This document shows positions 2,907-59,389 of a stretch of DNA of 59,389 nt, one piece after another. A program made the translations under genes and the position numbers. The DNA is taken from the NCBI GenBank assembly GCA_964407715.1, contig CAYOWP010000002.1, forward strand, positions 53,838 to 113,226, given 5' to 3'. The stretch's first letter is position 1. Every line of letters starts with the position of its first letter. The notes beneath the pieces were generated by a model. That model had not been told where the DNA came from. It did no database searches and saw only the letters and a program-made list of their open reading frames with translations. The stretch is from an uncultured archaeon. GTDB taxonomy: Archaea; EX4484-52; JAADEF01.

Positions 2907-3260
2907 ATGAGATTAAAAGAACAAACATTTTTCAGATTTTTTTATTGTCTAATATTCTTTTGCATCTTTTTATCTTTTATGTATTTGATTTACTATTTGC
3001 TTTATGAAAACAAATTTCATTTTTATGAAATTAATGAAATTAATGTTAACTTAATTGGAGAAAAAGTAGAAACATGCGGCGTGATTGATTACATAAGAAG
3101 AACAGAGGAGGTCTTGTTTATTAAATTAACAAACTATAATCATTCTATAGATGTTGTAGATTTCAACTTTAAATATCTCAACTTTTCTAAAGGAGATTTC
3201 ATTTGTGTGAGAGGAGTTGTCAAACAATACAAAGGAAAATTGGAGATTATTGCTCAATAA
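2907..3260 (+). CDS. membrane-anchored OB-fold (nucleic-acid-binding type) protein
   Basis: N-terminal hydrophobic segment, then an OB-fold-like C-terminal region (VETCGVIDYIRR...GDFICVRGVVKQYKGKLEI) resembling anticodon-binding/RPA-type OB domains. Confidence 0.4.
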   Translation: MRLKEQTFFRFFYCLIFFCIFLSFMYLIYYLLYENKFHFYEINEINVNLIGEKVETCGVIDYIRRTEEVLFIKLTNYNHSIDVVDFNFKYLNFSKGDFICVRGVVKQYKGKLEIIAQ

Positions 3261-3275
3261 TTAAAAGAGAATATC

Positions 3276-3332
3276 GGAGCGGGTACGCCGCGGAGATACC
3301 CGCTCCTATCACCCCAGCCAGAAAGGGGTGAT
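3276..3332 (+). other. GC-rich twin-hairpin element downstream of the OB-fold gene (candidate small structured RNA or terminator)
   Basis: Perfect 10-bp stem GGAGCGGGTA/TACCCGCTCC with an 11-nt loop, immediately followed by an 8-bp stem ATCACCCC/GGGGTGAT with a 9-nt loop. The GC content is far above the surroundings. Confidence 0.35.
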
Positions 3333-3399
3333 CATGAGCACATACAAAAATAAATATATTAAGAAAAATTTTAAAATATTTCAATTAAGTTAAGGTTTT

Positions 3400-3816: not shown

Positions 3817-4628
3817 GAAGAATCATAATTTTGAAATATGGTGAATTATGGTTAAAATCCAGAAGAACAAAAAAGAGATTTATTAAGTTATTAAGAAGAC
3901 ATCTAACATCACTATTTCCAAAAGATATTTTTTATTTTAAAAGGGATAGAGTAGAGGTTATAACAAACAATTTTGATCTCATGAGATTTAAGTATATTCC
4001 TGGCATTGAGTATGCACATCTATGCTATAAAACATCATCTATTATAGATGACATCATAGCGGTGGTTGAAAAAATTTTAAATGAAGAAAAACTGAAGTTT
4101 GAATCTTTTGCTGTGAGATGCAAGAGAACAGGAAAGCACAATTTTAGAAGCAAAGATATTGAGGAGATAGTAGGCAATTTAATAAAAGAGAAAACACATG
4201 CAAAAGTGGATTTAAATAATCCTGGTTTCACTTTGAAAATAGATATAATAAGCAACGAAACTTATATCTCTCTTTCCTCCCTTGAATGTATTGGTGGATT
4301 ACCATATGCTAGTGAGGGAATATGCAAGGTTAACAATCCAAATAACCTCTTCTTAATCATAGAATTATTAAAAAGAGGGATGTATATTGAAAACCTACCC
4401 GATAAATTGAGAAAATACTTTCCTAAGATAAAGGAAGAGCTTTATCAAAGGCAGGATTTCAAGGTTATAGTTTATGATTATACCTTTGAGGACATAAATG
4501 AGATTCTGAATATCAAAAAAGAAAGAGATTTGGTTTTATTTCCACTCATTGTATATTCTAAAGATGAGATAGAAAGAAAAAATGAAATAATAACAAAAGA
4601 TATTAAAAATCTTTTTAAATCTCTATGA
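3813..4628 (+). CDS. THUMP-domain RNA-binding protein (ThiI/Tan1-like N-terminal architecture, no PP-loop)
   Basis: N-terminal ILKYGELWLKS matches the KxGEIxLKG start of THUMP/ThiI-type proteins. It overlaps the upstream gene by 4 nt (ATGA), consistent with an operon. Confidence 0.45.
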   Translation: MRRIIILKYGELWLKSRRTKKRFIKLLRRHLTSLFPKDIFYFKRDRVEVITNNFDLMRFKYIPGIEYAHLCYKTSSIIDDIIAVVEKILNEEKLKFESFAVRCKRTGKHNFRSKDIEEIVGNLIKEKTHAKVDLNNPGFTLKIDIISNETYISLSSLECIGGLPYASEGICKVNNPNNLFLIIELLKRGMYIENLPDKLRKYFPKIKEELYQRQDFKVIVYDYTFEDINEILNIKKERDLVLFPLIVYSKDEIERKNEIITKDIKNLFKSL

Positions 4629-4644
4629 TGATAGCAATTTATTG

Positions 4645-4937
4645 GGGAAGATGCTAAGAAGCGATGCTGCCTTTGGCAGCAGGAAAGTCCCCTCCCCAAT
4701 CACGGCAACCTCTCGCAAGAGAGGGTCCCGAGAGGGACGGCTCTGCCACAGAAAATAACCTCTAAAAAGCAAGCAATGATTTGATTTGAGCAATGCACTT
4801 TTTAGAGGATGAAATGGCATCCTTGCCGGGGCAACCTCACAATAGAGGGCTTAGACGGATGCTTCACATCCATCACCGCTTATATTTTGAAAGCGGGATG
4901 ACGGATGCACAGAAAGGGGCTTATTAGCATCATCCCC
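4645..4937 (+). ncRNA. rnpB: RNase P RNA (archaeal)
   Basis: GC-rich ~290-nt island containing the universally conserved P4 5' strand AGGAAAGTCC and the CR-IV-like ACAGAAAGGGGCTTA near the 3' end. The 5' end GGGGAAGATGCTAA is complementary to the 3' end TTAGCATCATCCCC (P1). Only short, compositionally odd ORFs occur here. Confidence 0.85.
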
Positions 4938-16720: not shown

Positions 16721-17686
16721 TTAAACAGCCTCTATTGTTGAGGGCGGTTTCTTTGTTATGTTATATGTAACGCTTACAACACCAGGCACTTCTTGCGTTA
16801 ATCTCTCTGCCAGTTTTTCTAAAGTTTCATAAGGAAGCTTTGTTGGAGAAGCTACTTTTGCATCTTCGCTATCCCAACATCTTACTTCTATTTGCAATCC
16901 ATATTCTCTTTTTCCATTCTTTATTCCAGTAACTTTGTCCTCATGCAAAATGGCAAAATATTGAAAAGCCCCTGTTCTTGATAACTCTTCTTCCACAATC
17001 TTTGTTGCCTTTCTTATAATTTCTACCCTTTCTGGCGTAACCTCTCCTATTATCCTTGTTGCCAAAGCAGGCCCGGGAAAGGGAGGTCTATTGTATATTT
17101 CTTCTGGCAAACCAAGAGCCTTTGCTACCTTTCTTATTGCTGGTTTTCTTAGTTGAAGCAGAGGTTCTATAACTTTATAGCCGTATGCTTGCTCAGTATC
17201 AATTCCGAGTTGTTCAAGTATATTATGCTGTCTTTTAATTCCCGCAACGGTTTCTTCTATATCTGTATAGTTTGTGCCTTGGAGAATGTATTTAACCTCA
17301 AGTTTTCTTACCAATGGTCCAAAAACATCTTTGTAAAATGCTTGTGTAATTGCTTCTCTTTTTTCCTCTGGATCTTTAACTCCTTTTAATCTATCAAAGA
17401 AAATTTTTCGAGCATCTATAAGCTCAACATTCACGCCAAGGTCTTTAAACAATGAAACAATATGTTCTGGTTCGCCTTCCCGCATTAAACCATTATCAAT
17501 GAAATAGATCTTGAGCCTATCACCTAAAGCCCTGTGAGCTAGCATTGTCACAGTTGAAGAATCAACACCGCCAGATAATGCGCTGATAGCTTGTTCATCA
17601 CCAACAATTGAGGAAATTTCTTGAACCTTTTCTTCAATAAACCTTTCAGGATCCAATTCTTCCACCGTTATTTCTTTGATTTTCAT
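16721..17686 (-). CDS. guaA: GMP synthase [glutamine-hydrolysing] subunit B (ATP pyrophosphatase)
   Basis: PP-loop SGGVDSS near the N-terminus. ~320 aa, the size of archaeal split GuaA subunit B. Its GC content and amino-acid usage differ from neighbouring genes (see findings). Confidence 0.85.
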   Translation of the reverse strand: MKIKEITVEELDPERFIEEKVQEISSIVGDEQAISALSGGVDSSTVTMLAHRALGDRLKIYFIDNGLMREGEPEHIVSLFKDLGVNVELIDARKIFFDRLKGVKDPEEKREAITQAFYKDVFGPLVRKLEVKYILQGTNYTDIEETVAGIKRQHNILEQLGIDTEQAYGYKVIEPLLQLRKPAIRKVAKALGLPEEIYNRPPFPGPALATRIIGEVTPERVEIIRKATKIVEEELSRTGAFQYFAILHEDKVTGIKNGKREYGLQIEVRCWDSEDAKVASPTKLPYETLEKLAERLTQEVPGVVSVTYNITKKPPSTIEAV

Positions 17687-17742
17687 AATTTTTTATTTCT
17701 TTGATTTAAAATTTATAAAATTTGCTCCTTAGAAAGGTTAGC

Positions 17743-17990
17743 GGCATTGTCCAATAATTCTCTATTTGTTAAGCGGAAAAGTATCCTCTTAAAAAACCGC
17801 ATCAGAGCAGCAAACCTTGTAGAGCTAATGCGATCGTAAGAGCAAATTTTTAGTTAACAACTTCTCATCAAAAATTATTGGACAATTTGTTAACAGGAAG
17901 CATAGCCATATTCAAAGGCTTAACTGTTCTCATGCGCTTCTTTAAGATGTTATTTTTCTGCTTAACAATAAGGAATTATTGGACAATGCC
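17743..17990. repeat. dispersed repeat family, locus A: one complete TIR-bounded unit (17743-17886) abutting a second core plus TIR (17887-17990)
   Basis: GGCATTGTCCAATAAT at 17743, internal ATTATTGGACAAT at 17874, ATTATTGGACAATGCC ending 17990. Core sequences (GTTAACAGGAAGCATAGCCATATTCAAAGGCTTAACTGTTCTCATGCGCTTCTTTAAGATG...CTGCTTAAC) match the other loci. Confidence 0.8.
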
Positions 17991-18242
17991 AAGGATAGCT
18001 GATTATGTGTTATTTTTAAACACGATAACTTTAAAAAATTAACGGTAAGATACCGAAAAATTTAAATATAGATTTGAATTATAATCATTTAAGTGGTGAA
18101 AATGAAAACTTTAAATTTTAAAAAGAACATTTATGATATTTTTATCAGAGATAAGAATATAAAAAATAAGCATAATTTATCTTTTTCTTGTACAAGGTAT
18201 TATATAGTAGTAGCTATGAAGGTGCTTCCATTCTGGATATAA

Positions 18243-18303
18243 TGCGCATCACATACAGCATTTGTATTATATCATGATATTTTTTTGCTGTATGTGATGC
18301 GTA
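18243..18303. repeat. long near-perfect hairpin (16-18 bp stem, ~25-nt AT loop) in the large intergenic region
   Basis: TGCGCATCACATACAGCA ... TGCTGTATGTGATGCGTA are reverse complements of each other. Confidence 0.7.
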
Positions 18304-18357
18304 TAGGAGGACAATCTTATCATAATAATTATAATTTTTAATTCCGAGCCCAACCCT

Positions 18358-18379
18358 CCCGTAAAATGCGGGTTTTTTT
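18358..18379 (+). terminator. short hairpin followed by a T7 tract (intrinsic-terminator-like)
   Basis: CCCGTAAAATGCGGG followed by TTTTTTT. Archaeal termination uses oligo-T tracts. Function not established. Confidence 0.3.
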
Positions 18380-18489
18380 GTTTTCCTTTACTTTTATATT
18401 ATTTTTCATCATGATTATCACCACCTAAATGTTGGGAAAATAACATTTAAATATGTATGTATGAAATAATATTATATAAGAGGATTCAT

Positions 18490-18655
18490 GATGGGCTTTA
18501 TAGGTGAGTTAAGGGCATGAGTAGGGATGAGGAGCAGAGGCTCTGACCTAAATTGTAGAGGAGATTAATAATAACCGGCAGGCAGACACATAACCCCTGC
18601 CAGGGTAGGTGGCAAGTAAGAGCATCTGTGCGTGTCTGCCTGTCCGGGCCCAATC
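18490..18655 (+). ncRNA. GC-rich structured RNA candidate (unclassified; weak SRP-RNA-helix-8-like words)
   Basis: A 15-bp helix CCGGCAGGCAGACACA (18575-18590) / TGTGTCTGCCTG-CCGG (about 18630-18646, one bulge) encloses GCCAGGGTAGGTGGCAAGTAAGAGCA. The outer closure is GATGGGC / GCCCAATC, then an oligo-T. GC content is far above the surroundings and there is no plausible ORF. Confidence 0.35.
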
Positions 18656-18678
18656 TTTTTTATATGGATGTGACATGT

Positions 18679-19191
18679 ATGAAAAAAACAAGATATGTAT
18701 GTGAAATTTGTGGAGCATCTACAGATACCTTATTTAAGATTATGTTGGAAGGTAGTATTGTTAATGTATGTCCTTCTTGCAGAGTTCTTGGTAAGGAAAT
18801 AAACGTTGATAAATCAAAAAAAGAAAGAAAGCAAAGTTTTGATATCGAGAGATCTCAAGATTTTGAGATGGTTGAGGAAGTAATGGATAATTATGGTGAA
18901 ATTATCAAAAATAAGATATTAGAGAAATATGGAGACATAAAATCGTTCTGCAAGAAATATAACATCTCATATAATTACCTTATTGGGATTATTAGAGAGG
19001 ATTTTAAACCTACTTTGGAGGAATGTAAAAAATTTGAAAAATTGCTAAATGTTAGGTTAATAGTTTATGAAAAAAGAGAATATTTTATGGAAAATGAAGA
19101 AAAGGAGAATGAAAAAAATTTCCAATCACTTCAATTAGGCATGTTCATTAAAGATGAGAGATTAAAAAAATTACTTAATAATGATTTATAA
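18679..19191 (+). CDS. archaeal MBF1-like transcription factor (N-terminal C4 zinc ribbon plus HTH)
   Basis: Start placed at MKKTRYVCEICGASTD...VCPSCR (C4 ribbon) with a central HTH-like segment (KSFCKKYNISYNYLIGIIRE). This layout is that of aMBF1. The track ORF starts at 18628 inside the GC-rich structured element. Confidence 0.6.
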   Translation: MKKTRYVCEICGASTDTLFKIMLEGSIVNVCPSCRVLGKEINVDKSKKERKQSFDIERSQDFEMVEEVMDNYGEIIKNKILEKYGDIKSFCKKYNISYNYLIGIIREDFKPTLEECKKFEKLLNVRLIVYEKREYFMENEEKENEKNFQSLQLGMFIKDERLKKLLNNDL

Positions 19192-22044: not shown

Positions 22045-22092
22045 TATACATCATAGAAATTTAAAATAATTCAAATTGTTTTTGAAAAACCA

Positions 22093-22227
22093 GCATTGTC
22101 CAATAATATATTTTTGAAAAATTTGGTTAACGGGAAACATAGCCCTATTCAAAGGGTTAACTGCTCTCATGTGCTTCTTTAAGAGGTTATGGTTCCGCTT
22201 AACAAATAGAGAATTATTGGACAATGC
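22093..22227. repeat. dispersed repeat family, locus B: single complete 135-bp unit with 15/16-bp terminal inverted repeats
   Basis: GCATTGTCCAATAAT (22093-22107) ... core GGTTAACGGGAAACATAGCCCTATTCAAAGGGTTAACTGCTCTCATGTGCTTCTTTAAGAGGTTATGGTTCCGCTTAAC ... ATTATTGGACAATGC (22213-22227). It lies in the divergent rtcB/gyrB intergenic region. Confidence 0.8.
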
Positions 22228-22266
22228 CTGAAAACCCTTTTAAAATCCTGTCTCTTTTAATAATCT

Positions 22267-29183: not shown

Positions 29184-29199
29184 TTCAACAATTATACAC

Positions 29200-29446
29200 T
29201 TCTTTAAAAGGCTACTTTTTAACAAGGAATTATACCCCATCAATGAGCAGCAGTAGAGCAGCTAACCTTAAAGATGACATGCTACAAAACCTATAGTAAT
29301 AGCGATTTCTTCCAGTTAACAAAATCATTTAAAATGGTTAACAGGAAGCATAGCCTTATTCAAAGGGTTAAATCGCTATAAGTGCTATTTGCGTGTTAAG
29401 TTTCCGCTTAACAAAATTTTGTTAATAAGGGATTATTGGACAACGC
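29200..29446. repeat. dispersed repeat family, locus C: extended copy ending in a TIR variant (ATTATTGGACAACGCC)
   Basis: 29213-29443 is the near-exact reverse complement of part of locus F (48250-48470). It includes the core GGTTAACAGGAAGCATAGCCTTATTCAAAGGGTTAAATCGCTATAAGTGCTATTTGCGTGTTAAGTTTCCGCTTAAC. Confidence 0.75.
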
Positions 29447-29502
29447 CAGAACACAAGAATTAAACGCAAAAAATATATCCTATAATGAGAAAAATATAAT
29501 AT

Positions 29503-31331: not shown

Positions 31332-32777
31332 TTGGAACATATTAAAATTAGAATTATGAACCAGACAGATAGCGAAATACTATATGAGAAATATAAAGAA
31401 AAGATAAAAGAGTATTATTTACAGGATAATTTGCTAAAATATTATCAGCTTTTTGGACAAGACAGGGAGGTGGTTCCTGTAATAAAAGCAAAACATTATG
31501 CTAAAAGACCATCTATGCTATTATATGATACAGATTATAAATTGCATATTCTTGAAGGAGCAACTTCTTTCCATACTTCTGTTGAGAGATGGAAAAATGT
31601 TATGAAACTAAAAGAGATTGGTGAAGATAAGGACAAGATGAATGAGATAAGAAGCGGTTGGGATATTATAATAGATATTGATTCAAAAAGAGGAATAAAT
31701 GATGCAAAAATTGTTGCTAAAACAATTATAGATTTCTTAAGAGATATCTTTGAGATTCATCCTATTTATATTAAATTCTCAGGAAGTAGAGGATTTCATA
31801 TAGGAATAAGCGGCGCTTCTTTACCTCAAAAAATAGATGATGTGCCTATACAATACTTATATCCTGACTTATTACATAAAATATCCATCTATATAAAGGA
31901 AAAGCTTTTGAATACATTTAAGGCTCTTTTAAATTCCAATAATCCTCAAGATATAGTAGAGATAGAAAGCAATTGGTCTTATAGACATCTATTTAGAATG
32001 CCATATTCAATCAATGAGAAAACATATCTAATTAGCGAAGTAATACCTTGTGATGAATTAATGGATTTTGAGCCAGAAAATGCAAGAATAAGGTTCTTAG
32101 ACAAACTTCAACCTTTCTTAGAGAAACCTTCAAAAGGAGATTTAGAGGGTTTATGTTACGAGGCTATAGAATATTATGAAAATAGCGAATATAAAAAAAT
32201 GTTAAAGAACAAAGTAATTGAAAACTTAGAAAAAAGAAAAAAAGGATTCTTTTATGATATAAACTTGGACGAGATATTACAGGAAATCAATACAGCTAAA
32301 GAAGAGCTTATAAGAGAATATGGATCAAAGAGGTTTAATATAAGAGTTGAGGAAGAATTTTTTCCACAAACAATAAAAAACATACTTAAAGGATTGAGTG
32401 ATGGAAGAAAAAGAGGCATATTTATTCTTCTTAATTTCCTTAGAAAGATGAACTGGACCTGGGATGAAATTGAAAAGAAGATAGAGGAATGGAACAATAA
32501 AAATCAGCAACCTTTAAGGGAAAGTTATATAAGAACGCAGATAAGATATTTTAAGAAAAATGAGGAGAAGATAAAGCATATTCCTCCTCCAAATTTTGAG
32601 ACCCAAGGATATTATGATGATATGGGAGTGCTTGATAGGGAAGATTTAAAATTAGGAGTGAAGAACCCTATTACTTATGCATATAAAAAGAAGATGTTGT
32701 ATTTAAAAACAAAGAAAAAACAAAAAAGAAGGGGAAAATATGAGAATATTAATAACAGGAACGCCAGGAACAGGTAA
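31332..32777 (+). CDS. DNA primase, PriS catalytic core fused to a PriL-CTD-like helical domain (Nanoarchaeota-type compact primase)
   Basis: PriS signatures IIIDIDSK (metal-binding DxD) and FSGSRGFHIGI (SGxRGxH). The C-terminal FFPQTIKNILKGLSDGRKRGIFILLNFLRKMNWTWDEI resembles the PriL-CTD FPPCM...GR..FL block, but no cysteines remain for a 4Fe-4S cluster. Confidence 0.6.
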   Translation: MEHIKIRIMNQTDSEILYEKYKEKIKEYYLQDNLLKYYQLFGQDREVVPVIKAKHYAKRPSMLLYDTDYKLHILEGATSFHTSVERWKNVMKLKEIGEDKDKMNEIRSGWDIIIDIDSKRGINDAKIVAKTIIDFLRDIFEIHPIYIKFSGSRGFHIGISGASLPQKIDDVPIQYLYPDLLHKISIYIKEKLLNTFKALLNSNNPQDIVEIESNWSYRHLFRMPYSINEKTYLISEVIPCDELMDFEPENARIRFLDKLQPFLEKPSKGDLEGLCYEAIEYYENSEYKKMLKNKVIENLEKRKKGFFYDINLDEILQEINTAKEELIREYGSKRFNIRVEEEFFPQTIKNILKGLSDGRKRGIFILLNFLRKMNWTWDEIEKKIEEWNNKNQQPLRESYIRTQIRYFKKNEEKIKHIPPPNFETQGYYDDMGVLDREDLKLGVKNPITYAYKKKMLYLKTKKKQKRRGKYENINNRNARNR

Positions 32778-33288: not shown

Positions 33289-33297
33289 GAGGTTTTT

Positions 33298-33378
33298 TTG
33301 TTAACTGGAAACATAACCTTTCAAAGAAGCGCATGAGAGCAGTTAACCCTTTGAATAGGGCTATGCTTTTCCTTTAAC
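33298..33378. repeat. dispersed repeat family, locus D: core-only copy in reverse orientation, no TIRs
   Basis: Reverse complement reads GGTTAAAGGAAAAGCATAGCCCTATTCAAAGGGTTAACTGCTCTCATGCGCTTCTTTGAAAGGTTATGTTTCCAGTTAACAA. Its two ~19-nt termini (GTTAACTGGAAACATAACC) form a perfect inverted repeat. Confidence 0.75.
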
Positions 33379-33431
33379 CAAATCTCTCAATTCTAAAATT
33401 ATATATGCCAGAAAACCTCATTTAATATATT

Positions 33432-44398: not shown

Positions 44399-44900
44399 GC
44401 TAACTTTAAAGAGAGGTTAACTGCTTCAATGTGCTTCATTAAGAGCATATTTTTCCCTTAACCAATTTTTATTTAAAAAATTTTGGTTAAGGGAAAGCAT
44501 AACCCCTTCTCGAGGCATATCACAGCAGGTAATCTCTCCGAGCGTTTAGGAAGCAGCTAACCTTTCTTCAGGTTAGCATGCTGTAATATGGTCGCGAATA
44601 TGATATCATCCCGTTAACCATATTATTCAAAATTAAATAAAATTTGGTTAAGGGGAACTATGCCTTACATCTATACCTTCATTGCAGCAGTTAACCTGAA
44701 GAAAGGTTACCTGCTCAAATGTGTTTTTGAGATGGTATGTTTCCCCTTAACCATTTTTATTCAAAATAATTGGTTAACGAGCAGAAATCGCTTTTCTAAA
44801 GCATACTGTAGCATGATAATCTTCTTTTTAGGTTATCTGCTTCTAATGTGTTTTCTTGGTTATGTGTATTTTCCTTTAACAAAATTATTTAAAATGCGAG
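44395..44900. repeat. dispersed repeat family, locus E: ~500-bp tandem array of at least five degenerate core copies, no TIRs
   Basis: Successive units beginning GGTTAACTGCTTCAATGTGCTTCATTAAGAG..., TTGGTTAAGGGAAAGCATAACCCC..., AGCAGCTAACCTTTCTTCAGGTTAGCATGCTGTAATATGG...CCGTTAACC, TTGGTTAAGGGGAACTATGCC...GTTTCCCCTTAACC, TTGGTTAACGAGCAGAAATCGC...TTTCCTTTAAC. All are recognisably related to the cores at loci B, C and F. Confidence 0.7.
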
Positions 44901-48224: not shown

Positions 48225-48595
48225 GGCATTGTCCAATAATCCTCTATTAACAAAATTTTGTTAAGCGGAAACTTAACACGCAAATAGCACTTATAGCACT
48301 TAACCCTTTGAATAGGGCTATGCTTCTCGTTAACCATTTTAAATGATTTTGTTAATGGGAAGAAATCGCTATTACTACAGGTTTTGTAGCATGTTAACCT
48401 CATCTTTAAGGTTAGCTGCTTTACTGCTGCTCATTGACTGGGTATAATTCCTTGTTAAAAAGTAGCCTCTTAAAGAAGCGCATCAGAGCAGCAAATCTTA
48501 TAGAGCTAATGCAATTCAAAGGGTTAAACTGCTCTCATGCGCTTCTTTAAGAGGTTATATTTCCGCTTAACAATAGAGAATTATTGGACAATGCC
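48225..48595. repeat. dispersed repeat family, locus F: 371-bp composite bounded by perfect 16-bp TIRs, holding a reverse-orientation core, a long spacer shared with locus C, and a forward core
   Basis: GGCATTGTCCAATAAT at 48225 and ATTATTGGACAATGCC ending 48595. Internal 26-nt inverted repeat CCTCTTAAAGAAGCGCATCAGAGCAG / CTGCTCTCATGCGCTTCTTTAAGAGG. Confidence 0.8.
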
Positions 48596-57716: not shown

Positions 57717-59389
57717 ATGAGATATCTATTGTTCATCGCGATGCTTTTACTCATACTTTTCACATTACCTTTTTCCTATGCAGCCACCTCTCTCAACTCC
57801 TGCACCACAATCTCATCTCCAGGAGTTTACTATCTCACCTCTGACATCACTGACTCAAGCAGTACTTGCTTTACTATCTCCTCTTCTGACGTAATTTTGG
57901 ATTGCCAAGGACATGTGATTGATGGTACTCAAGCCTCTGGTAGTTATGGCATATATGCCAGTGGCTCCTTAAGCAACATCACCATAAGAAACTGCAAAAT
58001 CCAAGAGTTTTATTATGGAATTTACTTCTATAATGGTGTTCATGATAGCAAGATAGAGAATGTTGTGAGTAATAGCAACAATGGATATGGCATCCGGCTT
58101 AATGGCGGTTCCTCCAACACATTAACAAACATCACTACTGAGAATAACAATTGGGGTGGCATCCTTCTTGATTCCTCATCCTCCAACACCTTAACAAACA
58201 TCACTGCTAAGAATAATCACGACGACGGTATTCATCTCTATTCCTCTTCTTCCAACACCTTAACAAACATCACTGCCAATAATAACGGTGAGGATGGCAT
58301 TTATCTCTCTTCCTCTTCCTCCAACATAATAGCAAATTCCACAATAAAATACAATGCTCAATATGGTATTTATCTTACTTATTCAGATAACAACAACATC
58401 ACATCCACAACAATCACATTCAATTCTCAAGGTATTTACTTTAATGGCAACTCAGACAACAACATCTTCAAAAACAATACCATACTCAAAAACAAATTTA
58501 ATGATATAAGAATAACATCCAGTGATAATAACAATCTCTTTTATAACAATCTATTATCTACAGCTAAATATAAAATCTCAGATGAATCATCAACAACAAA
58601 ATGGAACTATACGAATATAGGAAATCACTGGCTAGATTATGATGCTGAACATGAAGGATGCTATGATACTAACAATGACAATATATGTGATGATCCTTAT
58701 GCTATCAATGATAAATATGATTACTATCCAATCTATACAGGAACACCTCAAAAAACATTTACTTGCTCATCATGTAGCGAGTGTACATCTATAATACAAA
58801 ACAATGCAACTCCCAATGATATAGTGCAATTAACTGTTGATATTATTGATTCCACCACATCTAAATGCATATATTTTGATCCTTATACATATCCAGAAAT
58901 AATATTTGATTGTCAAAACCATTTAATAGATGGAGATGACAATGTTGATTATGGAATTTATATTGATTATACTCAAGGCATTACAATCAAAAACTGTCAA
59001 TTAACAGATTGGGATTCTGCAAATATCTACTTAACCAATGTTAAATATAATACCTTAAAGAATATAATCACTAAAAGTAGTCCAGATCGTGGCATCTATC
59101 TCCGTTCCTCTTCCTTCAACACATTAACAAACATCACTGCTAAGAATAACAATTGGGATGGCATTTTTCTCTATTCCTCTTCCAACTATAACACATTAAC
59201 CAACATCACTGCCAATAATAATAACTGTGGCATCTGGCTTCATTCCTCTTCCAACTATAACACATTAACCAACATCACTGCCAATAATAACAATCGGGAT
59301 GGCATCTATCTCCTTTCCTCTTCCTCCAACACATTAACAAACATCACTGCCAATAGTAACTCTCGTTATGGCATCTATCTTGATTCCTC
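57717..59389 (+). CDS. secreted right-handed parallel beta-helix repeat protein (adhesin/NosD-pectate-lyase-like), 3'-truncated by window end
   Basis: ATG at 57717. Signal peptide MRYLLFIAMLLLILFTLPFSYA, then repeated 22-aa units (SSNTLTNITANNN-xDGIYL-SSS) typical of PbH1 beta-helix repeats. The frame stays open to the end of the window. Confidence 0.65.
   Translation, partial: MRYLLFIAMLLLILFTLPFSYAATSLNSCTTISSPGVYYLTSDITDSSSTCFTISSSDVILDCQGHVIDGTQASGSYGIYASGSLSNITIRNCKIQEFYYGIYFYNGVHDSKIENVVSNSNNGYGIRLNGGSSNTLTNITTENNNWGGILLDSSSSNTLTNITAKNNHDDGIHLYSSSSNTLTNITANNNGEDGIYLSSSSSNIIANSTIKYNAQYGIYLTYSDNNNITSTTITFNSQGIYFNGNSDNNIFKNNTILKNKFNDIRITSSDNNNLFYNNLLSTAKYKISDESSTTKWNYTNIGNHWLDYDAEHEGCYDTNNDNICDDPYAINDKYDYYPIYTGTPQKTFTCSSCSECTSIIQNNATPNDIVQLTVDIIDSTTSKCIYFDPYTYPEIIFDCQNHLIDGDDNVDYGIYIDYTQGITIKNCQLTDWDSANIYLTNVKYNTLKNIITKSSPDRGIYLRSSSFNTLTNITAKNNNWDGIFLYSSSNYNTLTNITANNNNCGIWLHSSSNYNTLTNITANNNNRDGIYLLSSSSNTLTNITANSNSRYGIYLDS
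58108..58330 (+). repeat. intragenic ~66-nt tandem DNA repeats (block 1) encoding beta-helix rungs
   Basis: Units CCTCCAACAC(A/C)TTAACAAACATCACTGC(T/C)AA(G/T)AATAA...GGCAT...ATCTC..TTCCTCTTC repeated ~3.5 times. Confidence 0.7.
59095..59389 (+). repeat. intragenic ~66-69-nt tandem DNA repeats (block 2), continuing past the window end
   Basis: At least 4.5 copies of TCCTCTTCC(AACTAT)AACACATTAAC(A/C)AACATCACTGCCAATAATAA...GGCATCT..CT. Confidence 0.7.

Follow-up and report, generated by a model that had tools for sequence, protein, structure and literature searches.

The longest stretch without an annotated gene in the window (the whole 59,389-nucleotide piece of archaeal DNA analysed here) is a 992-bp spacer at positions 17687-18678. 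It lies between the divergent genes guaA, which encodes the PP-ATPase subunit of GMP synthase, and aMBF1, whose product corresponds in archaea to the eukaryotic ribosome-collision factor Mbf1/EDF1 and is reported to bind ribosomes (Blombach et al. 2014). The window is AT-rich, with a background of 31% GC, and encodes an archaeal RNase P RNA and three tRNAs. Within the spacer, the middle part (18000-18487) has 25% GC and the segment 18482-18683 peaks at 61%. A first-pass annotation had described the region as the largest gene-free one, carrying repeats, a near-perfect hairpin, a second hairpin followed by seven T residues (T7), an AAATGTT...AACATTT palindrome and a GC-rich segment, and had suggested a replication origin or unwinding region, a cluster of non-coding RNA genes or a regulatory region for the flanking genes. 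All of the listed structures were recovered where it had placed them. Comparison with homologous loci suggests that the spacer consists of an inserted miniature inverted-repeat transposable element (MITE) and a conserved plus-strand module for the expression of aMBF1, in which a structured leader RNA that probably binds a protein of the L7Ae type would gate aMBF1. We assign a probability of roughly 60% to this reading.

The aMBF1 protein matches PF26602 and TIGR00270, the latter (E = 8e-21) with 74.5 bits, which falls short of the curated cut-off of 110. A word-based search with the protein recovered the query alone and a first metagenome scan nothing; an exhaustive HMMER search gave homologues of 37-49% identity. 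Contig look-ups for five homologues led to four lineages with a long gene-poor region upstream of aMBF1, with homologues that are 41-49% identical: L185 (GCA_015520885.1), L182/L183 (GCA_015520895.1 and GCA_027042685.1), L184 (GCA_026997215.1) and L188-L191 (GCA_027076285.1 and three other samples). In these four lineages of archaeal metagenome-assembled genomes (MAGs), the elements of the module at ~18020-18678 occur in the same order upstream of aMBF1. The outer neighbours are different, namely guaA here and elsewhere rpoH with an intron-containing tRNA, a tRNA, a HAD hydrolase or an amino-acid kinase. Linkage to aMBF1 across five lineages with differing outer neighbours, together with a covarying structure, is the pattern of a cis-acting leader. 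The 160 loci with GuaA relatives in genome and metagenome collections showed no common neighbours and no spacer homology, and relatives of RtcB (68-81% identity) have neighbours that differ from those in the window.

The GC-rich segment corresponds to a structured RNA on the plus strand (Table 1), which has a length of 163-174 nt in all lineages, an invariant 5′ AUGAUG and a 3′ end of the form GCCCA-N3-4-U4-6. RNAalifold and manual analysis agree on a closing helix, a kink-turn hairpin, an A-rich variable linker and a hairpin of 14-15 bp. The internal loop of this long hairpin contains a conserved AACCCC, an inner hairpin of 4-5 bp with the loop GGGUAGG or GGUAA, and an A-rich 3′ side. The most conserved stretch is the 3′ strand of the RNA, CTGCCTGTCCG[A/G]GCCCA (CUGCCUGUCCG(A/G)GCCCA), which has a single variable position across all lineages although the aMBF1 protein itself is less than 50% identical. 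The G.U pairs of the structure are compatible with the plus strand only. In L182, the motif GCGCGTATACGAGG, found at the 5′ end of the leader RNA (4828-4841), recurs beside a tRNA-like gene with a seemingly long intron (~4125-4255, minus strand).

A covariance model was built from the sequences of the window, L185, L188 and L189 only (clade 1). Within its own clade the model scored 182-199 bits, and it aligned to L182 and L184 (clade 2) in full length with 75-79 bits (E ~1e-16, a rough value). Elsewhere in the window, among other DPANN loci and across 646 kb of unrelated control loci, it had no match. In the alignment fitted to the model, 97% of 166 pair cells hold standard pairs, and six pairs (13 cells) are changed on both sides; in controls with the partners slid by 1-3 columns, pairing fell to 22-44% with 0-2 double-changed pairs. 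Helices 3 and 4, which belong to the long hairpin, reach 97.5% and 100% pairing, and in three of their pairs both partners have changed. Searches of Rfam 15 at gathering and permissive thresholds, which include archaeal signal recognition particle (SRP) RNA, RNase P and riboswitches, returned no family for the element of the window (E<=10) or for three homologous loci (E<=5), apart from chance microRNA and partial C/D matches. A likeness of AGGU...GAGCA to SRP helix 8 was rejected, as there is no covariance-model match and the flanking helix does not form. The literature that was searched contains no description of a structured leader for aMBF1, and we regard the ~170-nt aMBF1-leader RNA with its kink-turn as previously undescribed.

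The invariant AUGAUG opens a possible mini-ORF (open reading frame), for which evidence is weak. In the other lineages, in-frame counterparts of 10, 11 and 24 codons are found, and the stop position is kept in three of four lineages; it is lost in L188, where the frame runs for 24 codons. The peptides MMGFIGELRA, MMSVARGELRA and MMARIRGIKA differ in length by a 3-nt indel that keeps the frame, and L182 and L184 differ by one synonymous change. Through this unproven mini-ORF, the leader could be translated as a leaderless message.

The hairpin at 18522-18550 fits the standard kink-turn position by position. A Watson-Crick canonical (C) stem (UAGG at 18522-25 with CCUA at 18547-50) is followed by a 3-nt bulge (GAU, 18526-28), the tandem trans G.A/A.G pairs (GA at 18529-30 with GA at 18545-46), a non-canonical (NC) stem of 5 bp (GGAGC at 18531-35 with GCUCU at 18540-44) and a tetraloop (AGAG, 18536-39). 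None of the six sequences deviates at the tandem G and A residues. The C-stem covaries, with A-U, G-C or U-A as the third pair (in three, two and one sequences, respectively) and A-U or U-A as the fourth (three sequences each). Among 191 loci (~1.2 Mb), the kink-turn motif GANGANGAGC-N4-GCTCNGA occurs only upstream of aMBF1. It is probably a binding site for a protein of the L7Ae type, as judged from this match to the standard motif.

Two observations in the L188-L191 lineage touch on the kink-turn. In L188 (1421-1450), and also in L189-L191, a second complete kink-turn hairpin (GUG-GAU-GA-GGAGC-AACG-GCUCC-GA-CAC) lies upstream of the promoter P2 (Table 1); this duplication is seen in this lineage only and is absent from the window. 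L190 carries at 421-475 a C/D box sRNA-like gene (Rfam sR60, 40 bits, E = 4.5e-7, gathering score 50), directly upstream of a tRNA and ~1 kb upstream of aMBF1, which suggests that L7Ae-dependent machinery is present in these organisms. Two known classes of kink-turn RNA were considered for the element itself and rejected. For a box C/D sRNA (typically ~50-70 nt), it has only a single C/D-like pair, no C′/D′ boxes and no 10-12-nt guides, and its Rfam scores are 11-15 bits against gathering scores of 41-50. For an H/ACA sRNA, inspection of the sequence and of the RNAalifold structure shows a lower stem of 14-15 bp, no ACA after it and the kink-turn in a separate hairpin.

To describe how genes start in the window, the upstream regions of 50 ORFs were compared. 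First genes of a unit have a TTTAAA-type box ~26 nt before the ATG and no Shine-Dalgarno (SD) sequence, and are thus leaderless, and internal genes have a GGTGAT-type SD sequence 4-7 nt before the start codon. The aMBF1 gene, which most likely starts at the ATG at 18679 and not at the GTG at 18628, is preceded by an SD-like sequence, and upstream of it only a T-rich stretch is found that is centred ~18 nt from the start, a distance too short for a promoter of its own. Its homologues carry an SD sequence in every lineage, for example GTGATC in L182 and GGTG in L188. The box of the predicted promoter P2 lies 35-42 nt upstream of AUGAUG and overlaps the palindrome (18427-18448); transcription from it would start 5-15 nt before AUGAUG. 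A U-tract follows the RNA in every lineage, at 17 nt from the aMBF1 start in the window and 16-19 nt across lineages. Since aMBF1 is SD-led and has no promoter at leaderless distance, it would be transcribed through the structured RNA, which we therefore infer to be its co-transcribed 5′ leader. The placement on the same strand immediately upstream of aMBF1, as read from the sequence, agrees with a cis-acting element. The suggested regulatory role of the spacer thus finds support toward aMBF1; for guaA, only that gene's own TATA-like box is relevant.

Table 1. Features of the spacer, its flanking genes and related repeats in the window (positions in the 59,389-nucleotide window)
Feature	Position	Strand	Remarks
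GMP synthase PP-ATPase subunit gene (guaA)	16721-17686	minus	borders the spacer on one side
Left 9-bp target-site duplication	17734-17742		AAGGTTAGC; 8/9 match with right flank AAGGATAGC
MITE copy A, 248 bp	17743-17990		terminal inverted repeats, fold-back, dispersed copies
Right 9-bp target-site duplication	17991-17999		AAGGATAGC; from flank comparison
Predicted promoter P1	18022-18068	plus	block ACGATAACTTTAAAAAATTAAC, then BRE/TATA ACCGAAAAATTTAAATA at 18052-18068; near-identical blocks in L185, L188, L182
ORF1 (candidate small protein)	18093-18242	plus	49 codons from GTG 18093, or 46 codons from ATG 18102
Hairpin after ORF1	18242-18304	plus	19-bp stem, core CACAUA/UAUGUG, U-rich 25-nt loop; from fold and homologues
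Box GCCCAACCCTCC (anti-SD-like CCUCC)	18348-18359	plus	kept in L185, L188; GCCAACACCTCC in L182/L184
Hairpin CCCGTAAAATGCGGG and T7	18358-18379	plus	from terminator scan
Predicted promoter P2	18434-18453	plus	GGGAAAATAACATTTAAATA, TATA at 18446-18453; kept in L185, L188; GGCGAAAGTTATTTATA at the same place in L182
Structured RNA, ~170 nt	18488-18661	plus	AUGAUG to U6 tract (18656-18661); homologues in L185, L188-L191, L182/L183, L184
Possible mini-ORF	18488-18520	plus	MMGFIGELRA and stop
Closing helix GGGC/GCCC	18513-16 with 18648-51	plus	from RNAalifold
Kink-turn hairpin	18522-18550	plus	putative L7Ae-type site
Long hairpin, 14-15 bp	18575-18647	plus	inner hairpin 18598-18614 (loop GGGUAGG), A-rich internal loop; z-score -4.1
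SD-like sequence	18666-18673	plus	GGATGTGA; 5 nt before aMBF1 ATG
aMBF1 gene, 170 aa	18679-19191	plus	zinc ribbon and helix-turn-helix; TIGR00270, PF26602
Further MITE-family copies	22092-22228, 29194-29447, 33295-33381, 48225-48595		at least four besides copy A; all intergenic
Units related to the MITE	44399-44900		intergenic; GTTAAC-bounded units

Upstream of P2, the module contains a further predicted transcription unit on the same strand. The consensus of its promoter P1 (TTTAAAAAATTAAC, a gap of 8-10 nt, then ACCGAAA-NN-TTTAAATA) is nearly invariant across the lineages, and plus-strand orientation follows from archaeal promoter architecture, because a transcription factor B recognition element (BRE) lies upstream of the TATA box. 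The first-pass annotation saw no plausible ORF in the spacer. This could not be confirmed, as ORF1 begins ~25 nt downstream of the conserved TATA box and ORFs of 41-51 codons occupy the same place in all four other lineages, each ending with UAA directly before a hairpin. The peptides are merely 15-28% identical among lineages and are conserved in position only; the C-terminus of ORF1 is hydrophobic. An open frame of such length is uncommon here, with only 144 of 5000 shuffles of the local sequence yielding one. The hairpin starts 0-1 nt after the ORF1 stop. It is unique in the window, its 19-nt arms are 95% complementary and its folding z-score is -5.4. Homologous hairpins in L185, L188, L182 and L184 have stems of 14-17 bp, U-rich loops and a common core, and at four stem positions both partners have changed (U-A to C-G, A-U to C-G, C-G to A-U and G-C to A-U). 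The plus-strand sense is indicated because the G.U wobbles would be A.C mismatches on the opposite strand. A scan of viral contigs for the long hairpin arms gave nothing meaningful.

Further downstream, the box GCCCAACCCTCC is preceded by an AGGAG-like stretch and followed by a hairpin and U-run. By inspection, the box falls in different frames or in no ORF across the lineages, and it therefore seems to be conserved at the nucleotide level. The terminator scan that recovered CCCGTAAAATGCGGG-T7 found five sites in the window where 0.5 are expected, and this hairpin is the probable terminator of the ORF1 transcript; at the same position, L185 has a different hairpin followed by T5, and L188 only T-runs. 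The idea of a cluster of non-coding RNA genes is therefore borne out in part: the GC-rich segment is a conserved structured RNA, whereas the hairpin and the hairpin-T7 belong to the upstream small-ORF transcript on the same strand. Two other reading frames in this part were rejected. A minus-strand ORF of 24 or 28 codons (18424 or 18411 to 18338) has a strong GGTGAT SD-like context, but in L185 the conserved GGAGGGTTGGGC lies in another frame, and the conservation is accounted for by the plus-strand architecture. The other frame, a second ORF on the plus strand, runs through the CCCAACCCTCC box; since it lacks a start codon in the window and is closed in L188, the box was treated as a nucleotide-level element. 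In L182 (4688-4795) and equivalently in L184, the stretch from the hairpin to P2 is occupied by an ORF of 34-35 codons that has a perfect GAGGTGAT SD sequence and contains the CCAACACCTCC box. The two lineages differ by an in-frame 3-nt indel, and the ORF looks real there; the window and L188 have no such ORF.

Taken together, these elements can be arranged into a mechanism. P1 would drive ORF1, with a transcript that ends at the C-rich box and the subsequent hairpin and U-tract. P2 would start the ~170-nt RNA, and transcription would continue past the U-tract into aMBF1. Binding of an L7Ae-family protein to the kink-turn, perhaps together with translation of the 5′ mini-ORF, would shift the fold of the leader, and this shift would set either transcription past the U-tract or the stability or translatability of the aMBF1 message. 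In this way aMBF1 output would be coupled to the state of the translation and RNP (ribonucleoprotein) machinery. One speculative form of the switch uses the 3′ strand: GAGCC of CUGCCUGUCCG(A/G)GCCCA could pair with the NC-stem strand GGCUC, and UGCCU with the 5′ AAGGGCA. With such alternative pairings, mutually exclusive folds would be available to the leader.

Several points weigh against this reading. The promoters, the RNA ends and co-transcription are deduced from sequence alone, and the U-tract is only U4 in four lineages, a weak terminator by itself. The RNA sample consists of six distinct sequences from five lineages, many pairs are invariant, and the distal part of the long stem is broken in clade 2. 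Because the alignment used for the pair count was fitted to the model, it leans toward the given structure, and the E-values are rough. Position 3b.3n of the kink-turn is GU, UG, UU or UA, and the folding class is thus non-uniform. A more distant aMBF1 homologue, L186 (36% identity), has an A-rich spacer of 259 bp without such an element, which is therefore lineage-restricted; as far as seen, the leader RNA is confined to one narrow uncultured lineage. Finally, a stable RNP RNA that acts in trans and simply shares its promoter with aMBF1 would explain the element equally well.

In the strict form of this last alternative, the GC-rich element is an independent, stable kink-turn RNP RNA that acts in trans and merely supplies the aMBF1 promoter in compact genomes, without any regulation of aMBF1. 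We consider this possible but rather doubtful. The element has a predicted BRE/TATA promoter of its own, its end is defined by a U-tract, its fold is compact and closed, and its GC content is as high as is typical of structural RNAs in this genome. All this would suit such an RNA, as would the second kink-turn hairpin upstream of P2 in L188. Kink-turns are also described as hallmarks of archaeal RNP RNAs. However, the element is immediately upstream of aMBF1 in all five lineages despite scrambled synteny, it is present in a single copy with none away from aMBF1 among the loci scanned, and it has no guide-like segments and no C′/D′ or ACA boxes.

The leader reading can also be extended to the whole module, as a translation-state sensor that controls a ribosome-rescue/collision factor. 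Its parts would be the conserved promoter, the short ORF with its stop abutting a stable hairpin, the box that resembles an anti-SD sequence, and the kink-turn leader, which opens with a leaderless mini-ORF. The advance of ribosomes on both short ORFs, together with L7Ae on the kink-turn, would then remodel the RNA and set aMBF1 output. We regard this extension as unlikely; if true, it would add a new class to the cis-regulatory RNAs of Archaea and provide the first known regulatory circuit of aMBF1. Less probable still is that ORF1, hairpin and structured RNA form a small hydrophobic-peptide toxin-like cassette or selfish module that lies near aMBF1 by chance or hitch-hiking. The short, fast-evolving peptide with its hydrophobic end, the strongly conserved promoter and the very stable 3′ hairpin are reminiscent of such cassettes, but in five lineages the elements keep their order and their linkage to aMBF1, each contig has one copy, and no antisense promoter or antisense RNA is evident. 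Moreover, the module is without terminal repeats or flanking duplications, unlike the adjoining MITE.

The repeats noted in the first-pass annotation are explained by this MITE, a 248-bp insertion that separates the guaA promoter from the remaining spacer. For the motif ATTGTCCAATAATT, 11 matches were counted where 2.8 are expected, and none of 100 shuffles reached 11. Terminal inverted repeats that begin GGCATTGTCCAATAAT (GGCATTGTCCAATAATTCTCTATT...) are found at both ends of copies A, B and E, with arms of ~68 nt that are 82-92% complementary. The interior of copy A consists of GTTAAC-bounded units of ~45-50 nt each, and the copy folds with -96 kcal/mol (z-score -10). Target-site duplications flank copy B (8/9, TGAAAAACC/TGAAAACCC) and copy E (9/9, TAGATTTTT/TAGATTTTT) as well as copy A. 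The family comprises at least five loci in 59 kb, with sizes of 137-371 bp, all intergenic and without a long ORF inside; copies and derivatives occupy most of the larger intergenic regions of the window. Differences between the left and right arms recur identically in different copies, and the composite element has therefore been copied as a unit. Terminal inverted repeats, a flanking target-site duplication and multiple short dispersed copies without a transposase identify 17743-17990 as a transposon footprint and not as a set of initiator-binding sites. No parent insertion sequence (IS) or transposase was identified on this contig, and viral contigs, scanned with 17-mers for the MITE end, yielded short matches to the ends only, which look fortuitous.

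A chromosomal replication origin or DNA unwinding element, with the repeats as initiator sites and the AT-rich stretch as unwinding region, is hardly tenable. The AT-rich middle part, the divergent flanking genes and the window minimum of cumulative GC skew, which falls here, would fit an origin. However, GC skew follows gene strand, with means of +0.25 for 27 plus-strand and -0.26 for 22 minus-strand genes; it is positive in 25 of the former and negative in 21 of the latter, so that within the window the sign change tracks coding strand. No Orc1/Cdc6 gene is present beside the spacer or anywhere in the 59-kb window: the one candidate (714-1685, 323 aa, AAA_22 ATPase with a C-terminal winged helix) fails the Orc/Cdc6 models, and its best NCBIfam match is a PEP-CTERM-type ATPase, far below cut-off. 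The repeats, as MITE ends with target-site duplications, occur also at 22.1, 29.4 and 48.2-48.6 kb, with related units at 33.3 kb, and are not origin-specific origin recognition boxes (ORB/mini-ORB), and the part of the spacer outside the MITE is a transcription module that accompanies aMBF1 in differing genomic contexts. That the GC-rich stretch is protein-coding is very unlikely. Minus-strand ORFs of 51 and 56 codons (18498-18653 and 18548-18718) exist, and the plus strand has a conserved AUGAUG with a short in-frame ORF, but the substitutions compensate one another within helices and show no three-base codon periodicity, indels are located in loops and linkers, the G.U pairs point to a plus-strand RNA, and the plus-strand mini-ORF spans only the first 33 nt and has lost its stop in L188.

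Some observations concern the remainder of the window. An identical copy of the spacer was found in SRR7051321, and the window matches contig ERZ27248328:k141_306807. The closest source-named relatives of RtcB are MAG proteins labelled Nanohaloarchaeota, Woesearchaeota, Aenigmarchaeota or Nanopusillaceae, and judging solely from these source labels the host may be a DPANN-like organism. Proteins with 70-86% identity to the GMP synthase subunit occur on contigs binned to many unrelated bacterial and archaeal phyla (loci L003-L165), and none of these contigs shares neighbour genes with the window; this distribution suggests wide horizontal spread or mis-binning. Six islands of at least 55% GC are present: 18482-18683, the three tRNAs, the RNase P RNA and a double hairpin at 3276-3332 (island 3238-3361). 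The latter consists of two adjoining GC-rich hairpins with stems of 10 and 8 bp (-33 kcal/mol, z = -4.6), directly after a 70-codon OB-fold ORF (3048-3260, PF01336). It has no match in Rfam at the gathering threshold and could be a small RNA or a 3′ element. A possible fused primase is the 481-aa protein at 31332-32777, which weakly matches the primase subunits PriS in its N-terminal part and PriL in its C-terminal part. At 58047-58384 and 59049-59389, 69-nt repeats of ~80% identity are arranged in tandem, with 3-4 copies at each place. A CRISPR array was considered for them and rejected; at this identity they look more like a 23-residue protein repeat of a gene that leaves the window end.

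Gene regulation in uncultured archaea of the DPANN type is, to our knowledge, almost entirely uncharted. A covarying kink-turn leader in front of aMBF1 bears on the control of this gene and points to a second target of L7Ae-type proteins beyond their own mRNA. The spacer also illustrates that 'empty' intergenic regions in MAGs can conceal small ORFs and RNA elements, and that repeat-rich spacers between divergent genes should not be taken as origins when an initiator gene is lacking.

Compared with known systems, the repeat is an ordinary new example of a MITE-type element. It shares with prokaryotic MITEs, which are non-autonomous IS derivatives, the small size, long inverted ends, 9-bp target-site duplications, several intergenic copies and strong fold-back, and differs in its modular GTTAAC-bounded interior, its size range of 137-371 bp and the lack of an identified parent IS or transposase. 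With an archaeal oriC, in which ORB repeats and an AT-rich unwinding element lie adjacent to orc1/cdc6, the spacer shares a long AT-rich, repeat-bearing intergenic region between divergent genes; in contrast, no initiator gene is adjacent, the repeats are mobile-element ends at many loci and the remainder is a conserved transcription module. Archaeal box C/D sRNAs form the same C/D-type kink-turn from GGGAUGA(U/G)GA ... C(U/A/G)GA, and weak partial matches to sR60 and sR3 were observed, whereas here the boxes are joined by a 5-bp stem and tetraloop and the RNA is three times longer.

In Archaea, only a small number of cis-regulatory RNAs have been described (PMC7247131). The ribosomal-protein and other cis-regulatory leaders among them (Eckert and Weinberg 2020, PMC7247131) also have a covarying structure directly upstream of a translation-related gene, and in archaeal S15 leaders the structure is likewise followed by poly-U, a potential termination signal (PMC7247131). 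In contrast, aMBF1 is not a ribosomal protein, no likeness to an rRNA site is established and no published motif or Rfam family matches. Another relative is the kink-turn in the 5′ untranslated region (5′-UTR) of Sulfolobus acidocaldarius l7ae, which has been shown experimentally to bind L7Ae and also has the bulge GAU (Daume et al. 2017, PMC5539422). In both cases, a simple kink-turn hairpin with a 3-nt GAU bulge, tandem G.A pairs and a short NC-stem lies in an SD-led leader where leaderless mRNAs dominate, and a protein is proposed to control the downstream gene through it (PMC5539422; Huang et al. 2019, PMC6298567). The differences are that the gene is aMBF1, that the kink-turn is ~130 nt from the SD sequence, which is unmasked, that the binding site is predicted from sequence, and that the hairpin is placed inside a ~170-nt RNA with a closing helix, a long branched hairpin and a U-tract. 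Within this range of known elements, the aMBF1 leader RNA is akin to kink-turn-containing 5′ leaders and to cis-regulatory RNAs that resemble ribosomal-protein leaders.

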